A DNA stretch of 64,000 nt from Rubripirellula sp. (GCA_051010795.1 JBPCVE010000273.1:128-64127); one strand, 5' to 3'; positions 1,330 to 11,657 are shown, counted from the first letter of the stretch. Program-made: numbers and translations. Notes: a model not told the origin generated them from the letters alone.

Positions 1330-1626
1330 TCACCGTGGTTTGACATGCACCTTCAGTTTCTCTTGCAACAGACTCCAACTATCGCGGATCGCAAATCTCC
1401 GCGTGGTTCCAGTCTCGCTCAATTCCTGCACGGGTTCATGCTCCACAGCTATGGAAGCTTTGAACGGAAACCACTCATCTGGCAGTCGCCGCATCGCTCC
1501 ATGCATCATTTTGCTGTACACCGAGGCTTGGTGACTCTTCTTCTTCAATTGTCGTTTGACATGAGCAAGCTCAAGTTTCAGCAACTCAACCTGCTCCAGC
1601 AATTCAGCTTTACTTAATTCGCTCAT
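1330..1626 (-). CDS. small hypothetical protein with N-terminal coiled coil
   Basis: MSELSKAELLEQVELLKLELAHVKRQLKK has a heptad pattern; GGAG upstream of ATG 1626; no recognisable family. Confidence 0.45.
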   Translation of the reverse strand: MSELSKAELLEQVELLKLELAHVKRQLKKKSHQASVYSKMMHGAMRRLPDEWFPFKASIAVEHEPVQELSETGTTRRFAIRDSWSLLQEKLKVHVKPR

Positions 1627-2059
1627 GACCTTTTCTCCCACACGCATGTCCACCGGGCTGACTACTGATTAACGGATCGGGTTGCCTTCTGTACCCACTG
1701 CACTGCCGCGATGCAGCAATAAATTGCAGCAACAACACCGTCCCTCTGGGGGGTGGCAATGATCACAGCGTTCATCCGGAGGTATCACGACCGTTCTGAC
1801 ATCGAATCACCTCGCTTGCATTGCAGCTGGCAAAATGGCCGAAAATGCGATTGCGTCGACGTAGGTTTTCCCACCGCACTTTCCTTAAGGCACCATCCCA
1901 ACGAAAATCATTCGTGCAATGAATGTTGATTCACGATGAGCATCAACCCTAGTTTGGAGTCTTCAGCGAAATCACACCAGCAGCAACATAACGAGATCAT
2001 GGACCGCAATGAGATTAGACAGAGATCGCAGCACTTTTGAACTAGGCCCAAGATGATGT

Positions 2060-2878
2060 TCAGTCAGGGCGCTGACCTTCAGACAATTTCTGTTCAAACC
2101 GATTGATCACTTCAGGTAGATCAGCGACAGATTCAATCACTTCGTGAGCTCCCGCTGTCGTCAGAGTTGATGCTGCAGCCTCGCATTTTTCGGCGCGTTC
2201 TTTCTGCGAAAGCGACTCAAATTCTTCACGTGACAAGCCAACACAATTTCCCGTGCGACTAATACCAACTGTCCAGCAACCTGCATTGCGTCCGGCCTGA
2301 ACTCCAACGGCTGTATCATCGACTTTGACAATGCTGGCCATGGGATAAATGTCGAGTCGCATGGCTGCTTCATAGAGCAAGAATGGAGCCGGACGTCCCC
2401 TTGGTGCATCTTCTGCGCAAAGCACGCAGTCCGGAGTGTAACCTTGTGGTGTTGCCGCTTCGGTTACGACTTCCATCAACTGTCGTGTGTAACCGGTGGA
2501 AGACCCGATTTTCAGCCCACGTGCTCGCAACTCAGCAACGGCCTCGGCAGCCCCGTCGATCAAACCACAATGTTGATCAAGTGTTTTCAACTGCAGCGGC
2601 AGAAAGTCGGCATACATGGCTTGGATATCGGCATCGGCACACGGTTGACCATACTTGGCCAACCAGGCTTCGGCCACTGTAGGCATCGCAGCAATCGTGG
2701 CGATGTGATCAAGTTTTGCCATTCCCATTGGTTCGCGTGCTTGCGCGACTGTTATTTCCACACCTCGACCGCGAAAGATCTCCTGAAACACAAAAGCTGG
2801 AGCACGACTACCGTAATCCACCATCGTCCCCGCCCAGTCAAGAACGACGCCACGCATGTATTCATATTTAGCATTCAT
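2060..2878 (-). CDS. phnX: phosphonoacetaldehyde hydrolase (phosphonatase)
   Basis: HAD motif DWAGT, Schiff-base Lys motif PMGMAKLDHI, GRPAP and KVDDT; start overlaps the upstream stop (TAATG). Confidence 0.95.
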   Translation of the reverse strand: MNAKYEYMRGVVLDWAGTMVDYGSRAPAFVFQEIFRGRGVEITVAQAREPMGMAKLDHIATIAAMPTVAEAWLAKYGQPCADADIQAMYADFLPLQLKTLDQHCGLIDGAAEAVAELRARGLKIGSSTGYTRQLMEVVTEAATPQGYTPDCVLCAEDAPRGRPAPFLLYEAAMRLDIYPMASIVKVDDTAVGVQAGRNAGCWTVGISRTGNCVGLSREEFESLSQKERAEKCEAAASTLTTAGAHEVIESVADLPEVINRFEQKLSEGQRPD

Positions 2879-4026
2879 TACTTATCACTTTCCCATCGTT
2901 GCCATGCTTGCTCAGCCAAGCCAAAAGACATTGTCATCCCAGCACCACCCGTTCCTACAAACAGATGAACCTTTGGTTCAATCTGCTTTTCGAACACCGG
3001 TAATGTTCCATGTTTGGCATAAATTCCGTGCCAGCGCTGTGTAATTGACCAATCATCCAATTGAATCACTTTTCTTAGTTCATGCAGAATCAGATCATCA
3101 ATCTCGGTCTTATCAAAGGGCGAGATATTCTCACCGTACTCGTGTGAATCCCCCAGCACAACTTCGCCACCGGGAAACACAGATGCCATCACATGAATTC
3201 CATAGTGGTCCAGTAGAGGTGAGTCTTTTTGTATCCGCTCACGCAACTTCTGATGTGCACGGCAGGACTCAAACGAGGTGTAGTGCCTCAATGTCAATCC
3301 GCTCGCAATGTGTGGTGTCTTCTCGTCAATTCCGTCCTGCGGCACGGTCCTCAGCATTTGCAGCTTGCATAATTTCAAATCCGAGGAAGCAAACTCATCG
3401 GGGTAAAGCGTTTGCAAATCGCTTCCACTACAGATAATAACCCGACCAGCATTCCACTGTTTTCCATCAGCAGTCGTGATCTGCCCATCCACCACACTGG
3501 TGACGTGAGTGTTGAAACGACACTCAACCTGGTGCTCTGCAGCCAGCCAGTTCGCGATCGAATGACTCGCTGTTCTGGGATCAACTCTTAGTTCCGTCGG
3601 ACTGTACATGCCACCCAACAGCCCCGTCTGATTCGCCAATCTGGTCCGCTCGGCAATTTGCTGGGCAGTCAGCATGCTGACTTGGTGGGTATGCTGTTGG
3701 CAGAACTCTTGCAGCACATCCAACTCATCTGGTTGATGTGCCAGATGCAAGGAACCACAGGCCTCAACAGAGGTAACCCTCTGGGCTCCCAACTGCATCC
3801 AGAAATCACGTGATTGCAGGGCAATCTGATAGAGGTCCCCTGCAGGCTGGCCTACTGGCCAAATCATGCCAAAATTCCTGACAGAAGCCCCTTGAGCACG
3901 TTGCGTTCTTTCCAGCACCAGAACTGAATGTCCCCGGCTTGCCGCTCGCCAAGCATGAGCAAGTCCGACAATCCCGCCTCCCACAATGGCGACATCGAAG
4001 TCTCCGGGCTGATTATTGCTGGTCAT
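2878..4026 (-). CDS. FAD-dependent oxidoreductase, TIGR03364 type (phosphonate-associated amine oxidase, Pbf-like)
   Basis: GGGIVG dinucleotide motif, GASVRNFGMIWP, GDSHEY, GAGMTMSFGLAE; lies between phnZ and phnX with overlapping start/stop codons. Confidence 0.88.
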   Translation of the reverse strand: MTSNNQPGDFDVAIVGGGIVGLAHAWRAASRGHSVLVLERTQRAQGASVRNFGMIWPVGQPAGDLYQIALQSRDFWMQLGAQRVTSVEACGSLHLAHQPDELDVLQEFCQQHTHQVSMLTAQQIAERTRLANQTGLLGGMYSPTELRVDPRTASHSIANWLAAEHQVECRFNTHVTSVVDGQITTADGKQWNAGRVIICSGSDLQTLYPDEFASSDLKLCKLQMLRTVPQDGIDEKTPHIASGLTLRHYTSFESCRAHQKLRERIQKDSPLLDHYGIHVMASVFPGGEVVLGDSHEYGENISPFDKTEIDDLILHELRKVIQLDDWSITQRWHGIYAKHGTLPVFEKQIEPKVHLFVGTGGAGMTMSFGLAEQAWQRWESDK

Positions 4027-4577
4027 GACTTCTGCGTCTCCAAAACGTTTCTCATGTAGCCTTTGAAATGCTCAATACTGGGCGTGACCATGCCCTCAAC
4101 CTTGGCAAGATCATCCCAACGTCGCAACCGCACGGCATCCCTCCAATGTCGAAAACTCTCAAACTCTTTCATCTCGGCCACCGTAAACGGACCACCTTGC
4201 AAACGAAGGCTTACCTGCGAAGCCTCGCTCAAACGCCCCAGGTAGTCGTCTTCCACCGCACAAAGGTATCGCTTGGCCGCAACATGCAAACGCACAGGAG
4301 TTGCGACTTGGTCACCGAAGGATGACTTAAGGTAAACTTCTCCTAACGCTTCATGCTTGTCATCAACCCCCTGGCCCGAAGAATTTTCAGGCAGATCATG
4401 GATCAGGTGTCCGATATCATGCAATAACGCAGCCACGATCAACAGCGGGGTGGCGTTTTCACTTTCCGCGAGTGTTGCCGCCTGCAGCGCATGCTCTCGC
4501 TGGGAAATCAGTTCACCCCCATAGAGTGAGTCGCCACGCTGAGCAAATAGGCTGACGATGCCTTCAATGATCCTCAT
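4023..4577 (-). CDS. phnZ: HD-domain diiron oxygenase, PhnZ family
   Basis: YGGE-ISQREHALQAA, ALLHDIGH, DDKHE, LHVAAKRYL, SLRLQGGP, LRRWDDLAK; start placed at ATG 4577 (MRIIEG). Confidence 0.88.
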   Translation of the reverse strand: MRIIEGIVSLFAQRGDSLYGGELISQREHALQAATLAESENATPLLIVAALLHDIGHLIHDLPENSSGQGVDDKHEALGEVYLKSSFGDQVATPVRLHVAAKRYLCAVEDDYLGRLSEASQVSLRLQGGPFTVAEMKEFESFRHWRDAVRLRRWDDLAKVEGMVTPSIEHFKGYMRNVLETQKS

Positions 4578-5685
4578 GGCTTGCCCCTGGCCGCACGGCA
4601 ACCCGGATGGGCCGGTGTTTTTCAGCGTATCGAATGGCATGATCGATTTGCTCCAATGAAAACTCGGCTGAGACCAGTTCAGCAAATGGAAAGGACTGAT
4701 GTTGCTCGCTCAGGAACTGTACTGCATCAACAAGATCAGCCGGAGCATAATTGTGAATGCCGTGGATCTGCCAGCACTTCCGAATGACCTGCTCCGGATT
4801 CAGCTTCATGTCATCACACTTCATGACCGATCCGACGAGAACGATTCTGGCACCGATATTCGCAGACTCGATCGCAGACTCAATGGCATCTACAGATCCT
4901 GAAAAATCCATCACGACATCAAATCCACTGGAATCGATCCGGTCGCCAGCTCCAAATTGCTGTGCCAGACTCAAACGTTCGGGTGCAGGATCTGACATCA
5001 CCGTCGCATGAGCCCCCCGATAGGTTGCCACAGCGGCTGCTGTTAAACCAAGCAAGCCCGCCCCAAGCAACAACACCCGTTTTCCCTCCACTGAACCAAC
5101 CGCATTGAATGCAGCCATGACTGTTGCAGTCGCACAATTGGCCGGACAGGCAACATGATCGGGAAGTTCATCGGGCACTTTGATGATCGTCGAATCGTGA
5201 CGCAGTAAAATCGCCTCCGCAAGACCACCGCTAAGTGCAAAGCGTCCCTCGGCTCTGCCATGTCCATATTTGTGAAGGTGACGACATTTCTGAGGCAATC
5301 CACGGCGGCATCGGTCACAGCGTCCACAGGACACACAAATGGACCAGGTGATGCGATCTCCTGGCTTCAGCGGATCCCCATGAACATCCACCGCCGGTTC
5401 GTCTGAAACTTCCTCCACGACACCCAGAATCTCATGACCCAGAATCGAAGGACTCGATTCCTTTCTTCTGCCCGCAATCGTGTGTAAATCACTACCACAC
5501 AGAGTGCAACACACTACCCGCACCAATGTCTCACCAAGCTGAAGCTCTGGCCGCGGCAAGAGACAAAACTCCAAGGGACGCTTTGCCTCGTGAAAAACTG
5601 CCGCGAGCACTCCTTCCTCCGAACTCTCTTCCTGTGAAGTCAAAACCGGAGGGTGATCCTGCTCTGGAGTGAACGATTCTTCCAT
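4564..5685 (-). CDS. zinc-binding alcohol dehydrogenase, phosphonate-catabolism-associated (TIGR03366-like)
   Basis: CGSDLH, GHE, CGRCDRCRRGLPQKC structural Zn site, NCATAT, GAGLLG, HNY; overlaps phnZ by 14 nt; start uncertain. Confidence 0.85.
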   Translation of the reverse strand: MEESFTPEQDHPPVLTSQEESSEEGVLAAVFHEAKRPLEFCLLPRPELQLGETLVRVVCCTLCGSDLHTIAGRRKESSPSILGHEILGVVEEVSDEPAVDVHGDPLKPGDRITWSICVSCGRCDRCRRGLPQKCRHLHKYGHGRAEGRFALSGGLAEAILLRHDSTIIKVPDELPDHVACPANCATATVMAAFNAVGSVEGKRVLLLGAGLLGLTAAAVATYRGAHATVMSDPAPERLSLAQQFGAGDRIDSSGFDVVMDFSGSVDAIESAIESANIGARIVLVGSVMKCDDMKLNPEQVIRKCWQIHGIHNYAPADLVDAVQFLSEQHQSFPFAELVSAEFSLEQIDHAIRYAEKHRPIRVAVRPGASHEDH

Positions 5686-5776
5686 CTTTTTTCTTTCAGT
5701 CACTTTCAGTTTCGAAAATTGACAAGAATCCATCTCAACATCGATCAACATTCAGCGGTGACGAACATCGCCCCCA

Positions 5777-7129
5777 TCAGTCAAGCGTTTCTGCGTGATC
5801 ATTCCCATGCTCGAGCGAATCGACTTTCTGGACAAGCACGCGTTGAAAATACACCAATGCGAGCAGCAAAGCCACAAACGAAAGGACAGCAATCACGGCC
5901 AGAAGTTGCAGGAAGTACGGCAGCACCTCACGGGAATTCCCCACAGAATTACGGGCAACCAGCACCACACCATACCCGAGGTACCCCAGCGAATCTGCCA
6001 CATACAGCAGGAATCCCATGTTGGCGGGTCGACCGGACGCGGCAACCAACCGCTCAAAAACCGTTGTGTGAAATGCAACGTAGGGCAGGTAGAGGCCAAT
6101 TCCACAGGCAATCATGAAACCGAGCGGCCCCAACCACCCCAAATATTGCATCCCCGCAGACGCACCAATCAACACAAAGGCGACACACATCATCCCGAGC
6201 GTGACCCGCAGGGCAGTGAGGTTGTGAGATATCCAGATGGCACCAGCGTTCAAGGCAGTAACACAAATAGCGACGATGAATTCGGACGTTGCATAACCCC
6301 AAGGTTCCTCCGTCACACCCATGTCACGCCAAAGCTCGACACCAAAGTCATCACGCACCGTACGCAATAATGTGATGCCCATATAAACCAGAAGGATCAA
6401 ACAGAAGCCAGGCCAGAAGGCGGTAAAGAAACTCCACCGCGCGGCGCGATCCATTGCCTTTCGTTCTGAACGCTCACGAAGATCACTGACGTCAGGCCGA
6501 GGTGTTTTCTGCAACACCCAGACGGCAACCAACAGCGGAGGAAGAAACAGGAAACCAGTGACCATTGGCATCTGAAACTCATTGACCCCCATGTCCTGAA
6601 TCAACCACTGCCCAATCGACTTCACTGCCCCCGATGACATGATAAAACTCGCGCACAGGACGGCAGACATGGCCTCGGTATGCCGACGGCCTTCCAAGTA
6701 GGACATCACAAGGCCGAAAACCATTCCCAAAGGAAGCCCGTTCCAGAACAACATGATCGGTTTCCAGCCCAAGGGAGCAAACGCAAACCCGACCAGCGCC
6801 AACTCCGCAAATACAATCAGCGCAATGATGGTTCCAGCACGATTGCGTGTCTGCATCTCTGAAACCACTTTGATCCCAATCACTTTCGACAGCATGTATC
6901 CCGTCAATTGCGAAATGACCAGCATGGTCTTCAGACCCAGCACCACCAGTGGGCCGCCAGCGATCGTCAGAAAGCCCAGTTCAACAGCCGGATAATCTTC
7001 GTAGGTTGCTGCAGTGAATGGTTTCCGGAACGCATACATGCAAAAGTAGGTTGAGAATGCAGCAACAGCAGCAATCGCCAAATGAAGTTTCGAATTCAGC
7101 GGGGGCGTATTCGGCCTGGGCGTCTTCAT
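5777..7129 (-). CDS. DUF5690-family polytopic membrane protein (MFS-like; probable phosphonate transporter)
   Basis: About 12 hydrophobic segments; YFCMYAFRKPF, GYMLSKVIGIK, NGLPLGMVFG, YLEGRR, YVADSLGYLG; first gene of the phosphonate operon. Confidence 0.8.
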   Translation of the reverse strand: MKTPRPNTPPLNSKLHLAIAAVAAFSTYFCMYAFRKPFTAATYEDYPAVELGFLTIAGGPLVVLGLKTMLVISQLTGYMLSKVIGIKVVSEMQTRNRAGTIIALIVFAELALVGFAFAPLGWKPIMLFWNGLPLGMVFGLVMSYLEGRRHTEAMSAVLCASFIMSSGAVKSIGQWLIQDMGVNEFQMPMVTGFLFLPPLLVAVWVLQKTPRPDVSDLRERSERKAMDRAARWSFFTAFWPGFCLILLVYMGITLLRTVRDDFGVELWRDMGVTEEPWGYATSEFIVAICVTALNAGAIWISHNLTALRVTLGMMCVAFVLIGASAGMQYLGWLGPLGFMIACGIGLYLPYVAFHTTVFERLVAASGRPANMGFLLYVADSLGYLGYGVVLVARNSVGNSREVLPYFLQLLAVIAVLSFVALLLALVYFQRVLVQKVDSLEHGNDHAETLD

Positions 7130-7640
7130 CAAAGCTTCACTTCCCAAAGAGGCAGAAAGAAGTTCAACCGACAGAAACCCGACGTCTGGCCGCGTTTCGT
7201 GCACCATTCATACCAACTGGCCGCTCCTGCCGTAACCGTCACGAGGCGGAGTTGGCAAAATCCGATGGGGGATGCACTCAATTTCGATCATGAAAGCCCC
7301 GCAATGCTTCCATCCAAGTCTGACAGCCCGCAATTCAGCTGAATCTCTGGGAGAAAATCTGTTCCGCCTCCGTGGTTTCCACTCTGGTTGTGAAATATTT
7401 CCTTCGCCCAACAGAGTGAGAGATCAGCGTGTCGAAATGCAAACGATTAACCACACATGCGGATGAACGGGGTCTTGGACCGGACATTGAAGGGTACAAC
7501 ACATCCTTGAAGAGCTGGGACCGTTGCCACCCTCAACGCTCTCACGTCCTGCTCCACATGCACCGAGATGTTATGATCCTCGCACTCCAGCGTTTGACTG
7601 GGGATTCACGCAGAAAAGATAAACAAACAGGTACTGCAAC

Positions 7641-8644: not shown

Positions 8645-9487
8645 ATGTCTGCTTTGTCCGAAACACAAATCAAAGCGTACAACGAGGACGGCTATTTCTT
8701 TGCAAGAGAACTATTCTCTGCGGAAGAAATCCAGTTGCTGCGTGAAACAGCAACCAATGATCACGCCATGGATCAGGCAGCCTCACTGAGAGACGACGGT
8801 ACTGGCGCTAGCGTACGACTCACGCTGTGGAATCATCCTGGCGATGGCATCTATGGCATGTTCGCCCGCAGTCATCGTGTGGTCGATGCAGTCGAGCAAC
8901 TGCTCGATGACGAAGCGTATCACTACCATTCCAAGATGATTCTGAAAGATGCCAGAGTAGGTGGTGCGTGGGCCTGGCATCAGGACTATGGCTACTGGTA
9001 CCAGAATGGGTTGCTATTTCCAAACTTGTGCAGCGTGATGATCGCCGTCGACACAGCAACCGAACAAAATGGCTGCCTCCAAGTGCTAAAGGGTTCACAC
9101 CGCATGGGCAGAGTGAATCACATCCTGTCGGGTGATCAGGCGGGCGCGGATCTGGAACGTGTTGAGCATGCCAAGGAAGCATTCCCTCTGGTCCACTGCA
9201 CAATGACTGCGGGAGACGCCCTCTTTTTCCATCCCAATCTTCTGCATGCCTCCGCTGCCAACCGCTCTGACGATCCGCGTTGGGCATTGATCTGCTGTTA
9301 CAACGCACGCAGCAACAATCCCTACAAAGAATCCCACCATCCGTCTTACACCAAACTGGACAAGGTAGACGATGAAATGATCATCCGAGTGGGGCAAAAC
9401 GACGCGCAACGTGCTCGAGTTGACTTTGCCAATCTTGACTCGGATGATCGAAGCGCCACCAGTTTGTCCGATGACCCAAATCAGTAG
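8645..9487 (+). CDS. phytanoyl-CoA dioxygenase (PhyH) family Fe(II)/2-oxoglutarate dioxygenase
   Basis: HYHSKMILK, WHQDYGYWY (HxD), NGCLQVLKGSH, LLHASAAN (distal His), distal Arg in DDPRW. Confidence 0.9.
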   Translation: MSALSETQIKAYNEDGYFFARELFSAEEIQLLRETATNDHAMDQAASLRDDGTGASVRLTLWNHPGDGIYGMFARSHRVVDAVEQLLDDEAYHYHSKMILKDARVGGAWAWHQDYGYWYQNGLLFPNLCSVMIAVDTATEQNGCLQVLKGSHRMGRVNHILSGDQAGADLERVEHAKEAFPLVHCTMTAGDALFFHPNLLHASAANRSDDPRWALICCYNARSNNPYKESHHPSYTKLDKVDDEMIIRVGQNDAQRARVDFANLDSDDRSATSLSDDPNQ

Positions 9488-9542
9488 GGCAGGAAACCCA
9501 AGCCTGCTTCGCCAGGCAAGGAAACCCAAGCCTGCTTCGCCA
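9488..9542. repeat. tandem duplication, 27/28-bp unit
   Basis: ggca(a)ggaaacccaagcctgcttcgcca twice, starting directly after the TAG stop at 9487. Confidence 0.9.
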
Positions 9543-9623
9543 AACCTCATTTTTCTTTCACTGCCACAGTCAGCCTTTCGCAACGGCCTTGCAATCCTCT
9601 CCCAATTGAAAGCGGGACTTATC

Positions 9624-10448
9624 ATGAAATTAGGAATCATCAATAGTGCATTCCAGCAGGCAGGCATCGACACACAAACCGGTTTGGAGCACATTGCACG
9701 AATTGGTTTTGATTGCGTCGACATCTTCACCGAAGCGATGACGATTCCGCAGGAAGAGATCGATTTGATCCGACGCACTTGCGATGAGAATGATCTACCG
9801 ATCGTATCGACCGTCGTCGTTTCGGCTGGGCTTATCGACTTCAATGATCCCGTCCGTGATTTCCATATGCAACGAACACGCAAGTTCCTGGACCTTGCGC
9901 AGACATTTCAGTCGGACAATCTTTTACTGGTGATTGGCGAATACATCTGGCAGCGCGAAGTCATTCCCCCCGAGGCACAGTGGGAATGGGGAGTGGAATG
10001 TGTACGGGAACTGGGGATCGATGCAGGTGAAAAAGACATCGATATCGCTTTGGAACTCGAACCCTTCCGACTAAGCCTGCTCAACAGTGTGCCCGAGATG
10101 GTCCGGTTCATTGATGACGTTGGCTTGCCAAACGTCAAAGCAAACATTGATATCAGCCATCTTGTGCTTTCCGACACGTCACCAGGTGATCTGGAAGCAT
10201 TCCGCGGCAAAGCCACCCACGTGCACATCAGTGATTGCGACGGCAAGGTGCATGGTGATCTGCCACCGGGTCGCGGTGTCGTGAAATTTGCGCCGTTTCT
10301 GCAGGCAATCAAGGACCTTGACTTTGATGGAGCGATTTCCCTGGAACTGGAATACTCACCAGATCCCGCCAAGATCGTGGAATGGGTCGAGGAAGCCTAT
10401 CACGCGACTGCCAAACTGATGGACCAGGTGGAACTGCGCAGTCGCTAA
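9624..10448 (+). CDS. sugar phosphate isomerase/epimerase (xylose-isomerase-like TIM barrel, ketose 3-epimerase-like)
   Basis: Metal ligands in ALELEP, NIDISH, HVHISD, SLELE; HGDLPPGRG; start at ATG 9624 (MKLGII). Confidence 0.88.
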   Translation: MKLGIINSAFQQAGIDTQTGLEHIARIGFDCVDIFTEAMTIPQEEIDLIRRTCDENDLPIVSTVVVSAGLIDFNDPVRDFHMQRTRKFLDLAQTFQSDNLLLVIGEYIWQREVIPPEAQWEWGVECVRELGIDAGEKDIDIALELEPFRLSLLNSVPEMVRFIDDVGLPNVKANIDISHLVLSDTSPGDLEAFRGKATHVHISDCDGKVHGDLPPGRGVVKFAPFLQAIKDLDFDGAISLELEYSPDPAKIVEWVEEAYHATAKLMDQVELRSR

Positions 10449-10470
10449 AGAACACGTCGCTAAAGAACAC
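10441..10470. repeat. perfect 15-bp tandem duplication including the stop codon
   Basis: gtcgctaaagaacac twice; the first copy contains the TAA at 10446-10448. Confidence 0.9.
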
Positions 10471-10535
10471 ACTGGATCGAAACTTGCCGACGCGAAACGT
10501 GAACGCAACCACCACGACACCATGGGAACCACCAC

Positions 10536-11657
10536 ATGAGTGAGCAGGACGAAGACGAGTACGGGCTCAGCCCTACCAAGCAGGTCGTTAACATTCCGTC
10601 CCCGGATGTCCCCTACCAACCTCCACAACCCGAATCGAAAGAACATGGGATCGGTCTGATTGGCGCTGGAGGCATCAGTGAGTTTCACTTACGCAGCTAC
10701 CATCGATGTGGATTCCCAGTACGGGCAATCGCCAGTCGTTCCAAGGCGGATGCTGAAAAGCGACGGGATGAATTTTTCCCTGAGGCGGATGTCTACGACG
10801 ACTACCGGAAAGTAATCGAGCGTGAAGACATCACGGTGATCGATGCAACGCCGCACCCCACAGATCGGCTTCCGATACTGCGGGACGCCATCACCGCAGG
10901 AAAACATGTCCTCAGCCAAAAACCATTCGTCCTCGATCTAGCCGATGGTCGGCAACTCGTCGAACTTGCCAAACAGCACAACGTTCAACTGGCAGTCAAT
11001 CAGAATGGTCGTTGGGCTCCCCATTTCAGTTATCTTCGAAATGCAATCGCTGGGGGGCTGATAGGCGATATCACGTCGATTGATTTTTCACTGCAATGGG
11101 ATCAAACGTGGATTGCCGGAACACCAGCCTTTGAAAACATTCATCACCTGATCCTGTTTGACTTTGGAGTGCACTGGTTTGACATCACCAATTGTCTGAT
11201 GGGTGGTCAACGAGCCGAATCGGTATTCGCCGAGGTCAAACGCTTTGATCAACAAATTTTCCAACCACCCGCGATCGCCTCAGTAATCATCCGCTACCCA
11301 CAAGCCCTGATTCGCATGTCTTTTCACGGTCATACCCAACTGGGCGAAGAAGATGTCACGACGGTAGTGGGAACCCAAGGCACACTGCGTTCACGCGGCC
11401 CCGGCCTTAACGACCAACCAGAAATGCAGGTGTTCCTGAAACCAGGACAATGCACCGTCCCGCTGCAAGGCTGCTGGTTTGATTCAGGCTTTGATGGTGC
11501 GATGGGTGAACTGCTTTGCGCGATCGAGCAGAACCGTGAACCCAATCACAGTGCGGCGAACAATCTGCATAGTCTTGAACTCTGCTTTGCAGCCGTGCGC
11601 AGTGCTGATACCGGACAGCCAGTCGCCGTCGGCACAGTACAAACAGCATCACATTGA
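10536..11657 (+). CDS. Gfo/Idh/MocA family NAD(P)-dependent oxidoreductase
   Basis: IGLIGAGGI, GKHVLSQKP, NQNGRW, DFGVHWFD. Confidence 0.9.
   Translation: MSEQDEDEYGLSPTKQVVNIPSPDVPYQPPQPESKEHGIGLIGAGGISEFHLRSYHRCGFPVRAIASRSKADAEKRRDEFFPEADVYDDYRKVIEREDITVIDATPHPTDRLPILRDAITAGKHVLSQKPFVLDLADGRQLVELAKQHNVQLAVNQNGRWAPHFSYLRNAIAGGLIGDITSIDFSLQWDQTWIAGTPAFENIHHLILFDFGVHWFDITNCLMGGQRAESVFAEVKRFDQQIFQPPAIASVIIRYPQALIRMSFHGHTQLGEEDVTTVVGTQGTLRSRGPGLNDQPEMQVFLKPGQCTVPLQGCWFDSGFDGAMGELLCAIEQNREPNHSAANNLHSLELCFAAVRSADTGQPVAVGTVQTASH

Follow-up and report, generated by a model that had tools for sequence, protein, structure and literature searches.

A predicted phosphonate-scavenging operon with a probable DUF5690 importer in a marine Rubripirellula

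Introduction

Phosphonates account for a large part of the dissolved organic phosphorus in the sea, and which bacteria use which phosphonates shapes models of phosphorus cycling. Here we consider a 64,000-nucleotide stretch of a Rubripirellula sp. metagenome-assembled genome (MAG; GCA_051010795.1 JBPCVE010000273.1:128-64127; the whole stretch is called the window), in which positions 2060 to 7129 hold five phosphonate-related genes. The question that this locus raises is how phosphate could be released from phosphonates by an operon with no 2-aminoethylphosphonate (AEP) transaminase PhnW, no PhnY* hydroxylase and no C-P lyase. Judged from the gene sequences and the published biochemistry of their families, the operon likely serves phosphate scavenging from small natural C2 phosphonates, with import by a DUF5690 protein, entries at PbfG and PbfD, hydrolysis by PhnX and a parallel branch through PhnZ. 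The cluster architecture is already published and the four enzyme families were characterised between 2012 and 2026; the transporter is the residual novelty.

In the proposed pathway, the DUF5690 protein, a putative carrier of the organophosphate/anion type with a major facilitator superfamily (MFS) fold, would import phosphonates. PbfG would convert 2-hydroxyethylphosphonate (HEP) and NAD+ to phosphonoacetaldehyde. PbfD would stand in for the missing PhnW, forming the same aldehyde from AEP and N-methyl-AEP with O2, and PhnX would cleave it to acetaldehyde and phosphate. PhnZ would lie beside this funnel and not feed through it, cleaving imported (R)-1-hydroxy-2-aminoethylphosphonate (HAEP) oxidatively to glycine and phosphate. 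Neither the cluster nor the assembly contains a PhnY*-like hydroxylase, so that the substrate of PhnZ would have to arrive already hydroxylated. The original prediction for this locus had three entries converging on phosphate release. Homology supports the three entries, but the convergence has to be amended, as the PhnZ branch would free phosphate itself and not through PhnX.

Organisation of the operon

Strand reading and open reading frame (ORF) calling in the window gave five ORFs running in the same direction on the minus strand, from 7129 to 2060. From 5′ to 3′ these encode a DUF5690 membrane protein, a zinc alcohol dehydrogenase (ADH) of TIGR03366, PhnZ, a TIGR03364 FAD oxidase and PhnX. 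The features are as follows.

5777..7129, minus strand: gene 1, DUF5690 membrane protein, 450 aa (PF18943, 423 bits); probable MFS-fold phosphonate importer
4564..5685 (alternative start 5751), minus strand: gene 2, PbfG-type zinc ADH (TIGR03366, 380.7 bits; cut-off 328.1)
4023..4577, minus strand: gene 3, PhnZ-type HD-domain diiron oxygenase, 184 aa (TIGR03276 Phn-HD, 220.6 bits; cut-off 214.6)
2878..4026, minus strand: gene 4, PbfD-type FAD-dependent amine oxidase, 382 aa (TIGR03364, 435.5 bits; cut-off 285.1; also PF01266 DAO)
2060..2878, minus strand: gene 5, PhnX phosphonoacetaldehyde hydrolase, 272 aa (TIGR01422, 343.4 bits; cut-off 220)
7130..7640, no strand: intergenic region common to the operon and a divergent Na/Ca-exchanger-like gene; presumed operon promoter and leader

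Genes 2 and 3 overlap by 14 nt (the ATG of gene 3 is at 4577 and the TGA stop of the ADH gene at 4566-4564), genes 3 and 4 meet in an ATGA (4026-4023), and a TAATG (2880-2876) couples the PbfD-type oxidase to phnX. Genes 1 and 2 are separated by 91 nt if the ADH starts at 5685, or by 25 nt if it starts at 5751. Reading of the minus strand confirmed five co-oriented genes of which the last four are coupled, as had been predicted; all five are presumably co-transcribed.

The host assembly is 5.75 Mb in size and 82% complete, and among public genomes the nearest to it are marine MAGs that bear the labels Rhodopirellula, Rubripirellula or Planctomycetaceae. Six closer MAGs keep the operon and its flanks at 70-98% identity. 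The identical five genes in identical order are also found in three genomes of the same class (G043, G300 and G396), at 48-64% protein identity. Because the five-gene order recurs in both sets, the arrangement goes beyond chance.

The dehydrogenase as a PbfG-type enzyme

Both PF08240 and PF00107 match the window ADH, and the next-best model after TIGR03366 is Tdh (118 bits). The original prediction knew of no established reaction for TIGR03366 dehydrogenases, a statement that is now out of date. PbfG, a pf00107 zinc ADH that among characterised enzymes is nearest to threonine dehydrogenases, was shown in September 2026 to be a specific NAD+-dependent HEP dehydrogenase yielding phosphonoacetaldehyde (Piazza et al., Protein Sci; PMC13576164). 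The assayed enzyme, from the actinomycete Cellulosimicrobium protaetiae, has a kcat/KM for HEP of ~9e4 M-1 s-1, and its product is pulled to phosphate by PhnX (PMC13576164). pbfG clusters with phnX or with phnY-phnA, and the carriers named include Caulifigura coniformis and Planctomycetota (Pirellulales) (PMC13576164). In the window, PhnX is encoded in the same operon as the ADH.

That paper does not mention TIGR03366, and the link between PbfG and this family was built indirectly, from a named carrier, its cluster context and the register of residues. The genome taken as C. coniformis Pan44 (G156) has a single TIGR03366-like gene (312.8 bits), located in a phnA-like / MFS / ADH / phnY cluster. 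In C. protaetiae numbering, the residues of PbfG are the zinc ligands Cys45, His66 and Cys166 and the HEP-binding Arg56, His124, Ser47 and Asn298 (PMC13576164). When the window ADH is placed by this numbering, with the catalytic Cys set to 45, S47, R56, H66, H124 and C166 line up exactly and an Asn occurs at 294, four positions from 298. Across an alignment of 39 ADHs the residue set is kept in all proteins scoring at least 195 bits, C. coniformis included, whereas weaker paralogues lack R56, H124 and the Asn. Because the only TIGR03366-like gene of the C. coniformis PbfG carrier has the described context and shares these residues with the window ADH, the latter is supported as a PbfG-type HEP dehydrogenase that carries the published active-site signature. 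The predicted entry of HEP through the ADH gains support from the same residues and from the family biochemistry.

An ADH of this kind could, instead of acting as an entry, reduce phosphonoacetaldehyde to HEP as an aldehyde buffer, or have a different alcohol or aldehyde as its substrate, for instance the acetaldehyde that PhnX releases. The equilibrium of the PbfG reaction lies towards HEP, in vitro phosphonoacetaldehyde is contested between PbfG and PhnX, and the window ADH shares its operon with an AEP oxidase, a situation argued to be disadvantageous (PMC13576164). However, the characterised PbfG, with its kcat/KM of ~9e4 M-1 s-1 for HEP, does not use ethanol, 1-propanol, threonine or glycolate (PMC13576164). 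Moreover, the phosphonate-binding R56, H124 and S47 are conserved in the window ADH, and its most constant neighbour is the importer and not the oxidase, which fits an uptake-plus-oxidation module. We regard a role other than HEP entry as very improbable.

The C. coniformis locus (L045:7017-11928) comprises phnA-like, MFS, PbfG-type ADH and phnY genes, a HEP cluster of the phosphonoacetate type in which the transporter is an ordinary MFS protein and not DUF5690.

The FAD oxidase and PhnX

PbfD enzymes, which carry the annotation TIGR03364, form phosphonoacetaldehyde by oxidation of N-methyl-AEP and AEP (Zangelmi et al. 2023, iScience; PMC10590968). PbfD2 of the planctomycete Mariniblastus fucicola replaces PhnW, which is absent from the M. 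fucicola genome (PMC10590968). The C-terminal GTGGAGMTMSFGLAEQAW motif of gene 4 is close to the PbfD2 row in the 2023 supplement, this printed C-terminal motif being the part compared. The context of gene 4 is of the PbfD2 type, as it is joined to phnX and no PhnW over cut-off occurs in the MAG or in three complete relatives. Together with the family biochemistry, this supports the assignment of gene 4 as a putative PbfD-type AEP / N-methyl-AEP oxidase, and likewise the predicted entry of aminoethylphosphonates through the FAD enzyme.

The window PhnX aligns end to end with the solved Bacillus-type PhnX 2iof (E 3e-70, 255 residues). In the PhnX of B. cereus an Asp is the nucleophile and a Lys the Schiff-base residue; the equivalents of Asp12 and Lys53 are present in the window protein as D14 and K55.

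Absence of PhnW, C-P lyase and PhnY*

Profile searches of the 82%-complete MAG found no PhnW, the best scores being 131 and 186 bits against cut-offs of 400.8 and 360.8. These scores come from a class-V aminotransferase on C198, which was rejected as PhnW: its best matches are BhcA and pyridoxamine-pyruvate transaminase, it adjoins a lactate permease, and the true PhnW of G095 reaches 556 bits. Because the MAG is incomplete, the search was repeated in three 99-100% complete genomes with the same operon, and none was found (best 123-155 bits). In the MAG itself there was no match to PhnJ (PF06007), and hence no sign of C-P lyase, in a search that found the E. coli control. Phosphoenolpyruvate mutase was likewise absent from this assembly, as was PbfA (best 84 bits against a cut-off of 525). 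The genome search for phnW, phnY* and pbfA that had been proposed with the original prediction was thus carried out and found none of them in this assembly; the stated lack of PhnW and of C-P lyase held.

The further claim that no PhnY* is adjacent called for a closer look. No PhnY*-like gene was found, but a PhyH-superfamily dioxygenase gene lies at 8645-9487 on the plus strand, 1.5 kb upstream of the operon, and is kept there in the closest relatives; the claim holds only after testing of this gene. PhnY*-type hydroxylases belong to the PhyH superfamily, and the genome encodes four PhyH genes and one TauD gene. PhnZ might then be fed by a hydroxylase encoded outside the operon (the PhyH at 8645-9487, another of the three PhyH paralogues or the TauD-family gene), giving a parallel PhnY*/PhnZ-type oxidative route for AEP. 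However, on the GmPhnY* model the nearby PhyH reaches 55.6 bits, below its 73 bits on that for ectoine hydroxylase; a genuine PhnY*-like domain, which occurs fused to DUF5690, reaches 330 bits on the GmPhnY* model and shares only 26% identity with the nearby PhyH. In G043, G300 and G396 the 10 kb around the operon hold no PhyH gene, and the best PhnY*-like matches are hundreds of kb away and score 59 bits or less. The gene is also co-oriented with sugar-type genes, encoding a xylose-isomerase-like TIM-barrel protein and a Gfo/Idh/MocA oxidoreductase (window 8645-11657, plus strand). Scores of the remaining PhyH paralogues are 30-47 bits, and no NCBIfam model matches the TauD protein. By its model score, its low identity, its absence from the distant loci and its neighbours, the nearby PhyH was ruled out as PhnY* and is not part of the system, and we consider a supply of PhnZ by any hydroxylase from outside the operon improbable. 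The operon itself holds no canonical adjacent PhnY*-type hydroxylase.

The PhyH / TIM-barrel / Gfo/Idh/MocA group at 8645-11657 is conserved with the operon in close relatives only.

PhnZ and hydroxylated phosphonates

The best solved relatives of the window PhnZ are TmpB (6npa, E 2.5e-35) and PhnZ (4mlm, E 5e-32). Alignment to 4mlm shows that the equivalents of Y24, E27, H34, H58, D59, H62, H80, H104 and D161 are all present. The six His/Asp iron ligands, together with H62, Y24 and E27, are invariant in nine cluster-linked homologues. The oxidative PhnY*/PhnZ pathway for AEP was reportedly described by McSorley and colleagues in 2012 and by van Staalduinen and colleagues in 2014.

As in that pathway and in clusters with an orphan phnZ (PMC8154272), the window enzyme belongs to the HD-domain diiron oxygenases and has every metal ligand as well as the Tyr/Glu pair, and PbfA is missing, matching the mutual exclusion of phnZ and pbfA; unlike in that pathway, no PhnY*-like hydroxylase is found in the cluster or the assembly. 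phnZ without phnY* was counted in 15 phnWX and 24 phnWAY clusters, never with pbfA, and orphan phnZ in hydrolytic clusters was read as an (R)-HAEP branch (Zangelmi et al. 2021; PMC8154272). Many pbfD-phnX clusters also contain phnZ, that of M. fucicola included (Figure S1 legend, Table S1), and here too it was read as an (R)-HAEP branch, an alternative to PbfA (PMC10590968). By its sequence, the window PhnZ is a member of the PhnZ family outside the canonical PhnY*/PhnZ pair, a use already published for hydrolytic clusters. The predicted entry of already-hydroxylated phosphonates through PhnZ is supported by these published readings.

The substrate may nevertheless be some other 1-hydroxyphosphonate, such as N-methylated HAEP, hydroxymethylphosphonate or 1,2-dihydroxyethylphosphonate; this reading would change nothing but the substrate and fits the rest of the pathway proposed. 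PhnZ clears the TIGR03276 cut-off by just 6 bits, TmpB and not PhnZ is its best solved relative, and its Tyr/Glu substrate residues are kept in a PhnZ1-like protein too, so that they are not substrate-diagnostic. Moreover, ADH and PhnZ genes adjoin and overlap in at least six lineages, including MIOX / DUF5690 / ADH / PhnZ clusters without PhnX. On the other hand, the scores against the TmpB and PhnZ1 equivalogs (171 and 154.5 bits) are well under the cut-off of 300, no TmpA- or PhnY*-like partner is present, and orphan PhnZ in such clusters has been read as acting on (R)-HAEP (PMC8154272, PMC10590968). A different substrate thus appears unlikely, and (R)-HAEP remains the preferred candidate.

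DUF5690 as a probable phosphonate importer

An AF2 model of gene 1 (13 homologues) has a pLDDT of 81, a pTM of 0.82 and ~12 long helices. The basic residues R35/K36 and R256/R259 are invariant. Searched against the PDB, the model gave 399 matches at E <= 0.001, and all 50 listed are MFS transporters. The best folds are led by G6PT1/SLC37A4 and sialin, with SLC37A2 at rank 18, GlpT at rank 33 and phosphate transporters also among them (TM 0.62-0.72). Identity to these structural matches is ~14%, and the window protein has no MFS Pfam match at E <= 0.001, only PF18943; one homologue (P0077) has a precomputed PF07690 match. The predicted fold thus resembles the MFS organophosphate:phosphate exchangers, as represented by AepP (Murphy et al. 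2021, PMC8316502) and GlpT (PDB 1pw4). Unlike those transporters, DUF5690 forms a Pfam family of its own, and the window protein gave no significant MFS_1 match.

The DUF5690 family comprises 901 clusters at 50% identity (E <= 1e-10) and adjoins PbfG, PbfD, PhnX or PhnZ across phyla, including a DUF5690 / PbfD / PhnX-like / PhnZ set in a genome with SusD- and TonB-type neighbours. Two fusions were also found. In P0144 (L064:7001-8860) DUF5690 is joined to a PhnZ domain 53% identical to the window PhnZ, with PhnX and PbfD following it, and in P0129 (L063:117-2207; present in two samples) it is joined to a PhnY*-like PhyH domain, with a PhnZ1-like gene following it. Because an MFS organophosphate-type fold, phosphonate gene neighbours and fusions to PhnZ and PhnY*-like domains coincide, the modelled DUF5690 protein is probably an MFS-fold phosphonate importer.

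A literature search found no work treating DUF5690 as a phosphonate transporter. On balance we favour the wider view that the DUF5690 proteins make up a widespread, so far unrecognised family of MFS-fold phosphonate importers serving HEP, AEP/HAEP and methylphosphonate-type gene sets, and that DUF5690 forms the single uptake gate of the three-entry operon here. In that case, phosphonate uptake capacity would be underestimated by surveys limited to PhnCDE, AepXVW, AepP and AepSTU, above all in Planctomycetota and Bacteroidota.

Distribution in Planctomycetota

A further 400 Planctomycetota genomes were surveyed for TIGR03366, giving 13 more loci over the cut-off (14 with the window); 20 loci were fetched and the window's proteins mapped onto each. 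DUF5690 is the most persistent neighbour of the ADH, being found at 10 of the 14 over-cut-off loci, the window counted. pbfD lies within 10 kb of pbfG at 7 of the 14, and the combined HEP and AEP form is therefore common in the phylum, as sampled here. G095, G070 and G344 carry pbfD, a GlpT-like MFS gene, phnZ, phnX, a true phnW (556 bits) and the ADH gene, and in these related clusters the GlpT-like MFS protein holds the place equivalent to that of DUF5690. In Stieleria neptunia (CP037423, L058:6982-11057) and at L057 the arrangement is MIOX-family oxygenase / DUF5690 / PbfG-type ADH / PhnZ without PhnX; in S. neptunia a pair of PbfD and PhnX-like (TIGR03351, 243 bits) genes is found ~0.8 Mb away (L059).

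Two apparent features of these loci were rejected. MIOX is not a regular cluster partner: it stands upstream of DUF5690 in S. neptunia and one MAG only, the homologue in the host genome is on another contig, and none was found at the remaining loci. ADH-PhnZ or ADH-oxidase fusions were suggested by open frames of 570-764 aa, which proved to be either read-through at high GC or a neighbouring gene for an MFS or DUF5690 protein.

At L033:2775-10479 (G095; also L031 and L034) a divergent XylR/AraC-type regulator precedes pbfD, the GlpT-like MFS gene, phnZ, phnX, phnW and the PbfG-type ADH gene, so that PhnW and PbfD occur together. A PhnA-like protein (TIGR02335, 222 bits, below cut-off) adjoins a pair of PhnX and PbfG-type ADH at L044:8323-11362 (G139).

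Comparison with known systems

A close published counterpart is the PbfD2 pathway of M. fucicola, one of the pbfD-phnX(-phnZ) clusters (PMC10590968). In both, the TIGR03364 oxidase adjoins PhnX, PhnW is missing from the cluster and the genome, a phnZ homologue is present and a transporter gene heads the cluster; both hosts are planctomycetes of the Pirellulales group, and the published function in M. fucicola, from AEP and N-methyl-AEP through phosphonoacetaldehyde to phosphate, is the one proposed here. Unlike that pathway, the window operon adds a PbfG dehydrogenase between the transporter and phnZ. Compared with the published pbfG clusters, the window similarly has a TIGR03366-type zinc ADH with the PbfG signature beside phnX, and pbfG clusters with phnZ and pbfD appear in the legend of Figure 2b (PMC13576164). 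Here, in contrast, the HEP and AEP entries are coupled translationally, and the assayed PbfG is from an actinomycete.

Several points weigh against the pathway as proposed. AEP inhibits PbfG, HEP inhibits PbfD, PbfG competes with PhnX for the aldehyde, and HEP and AEP clusters are often separate (PMC13576164). Given this cross-inhibition, placing both entries in one operon may be less efficient than a simple funnel. The combined operon is a nuance to the separation argued in that paper and not a contradiction of it. The substrates and the transport role are all assigned by homology, for an operon known here from its genes, and the window enzymes are linked to the assayed PbfG and PbfD2 by family scores, residues and a motif and not by full-sequence identity. 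The absences in the 82%-complete MAG are provisional. Some DUF5690-ADH pairs have no PhnX nearby, and the narrow margin of PhnZ over its cut-off and the non-diagnostic Tyr/Glu pair count on the same side.

If the assignments are right, a marine member of the Pirellulaceae would combine the published AEP/N-methyl-AEP and HEP routes, and probably one for hydroxy-AEP, in one coupled unit without phnW, phnJ and phnY*, the markers on which most surveys depend. This is useful for annotation and for the choice of metagenomic markers, and brings no new mechanism. The practical gain is a well-supported functional assignment for DUF5690 as a probable phosphonate importer.

Upstream region and flanking genes

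The ATG of gene 1 at 7129 follows a GGAAGTGAAGCTTTG block that is invariant in four related loci. Several blocks of the upstream region 7130-7640, among them AATCGTTTGCATTTCGACA and CTGGTATGAATGG, are also kept in four related loci, and these blocks are possible regulatory sites. No regulator gene was found adjoining the operon, and a scan for consensus promoters and terminators gave counts at or below shuffled expectation, with nothing above chance.

From 14500 to 64000 the window holds ordinary planctomycete genes, encoding a sulfatase, an MprF-like lysyl-phosphatidylglycerol synthase, NDH-2, DUF1501 and DUF1552 proteins, a glucuronyl esterase and an outer-membrane efflux protein. A scan of ten of the larger ORFs there showed no genes of the Pho regulon and no others for phosphonate use. 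On the other side of the operon, ~400 nt 3′ of phnX, a small ORF (window 1330-1653, minus strand) encodes a Lys/Glu/Leu-rich product of 107 aa with no family match, and is kept in place in L009 (85% identity) and L012 (61%).

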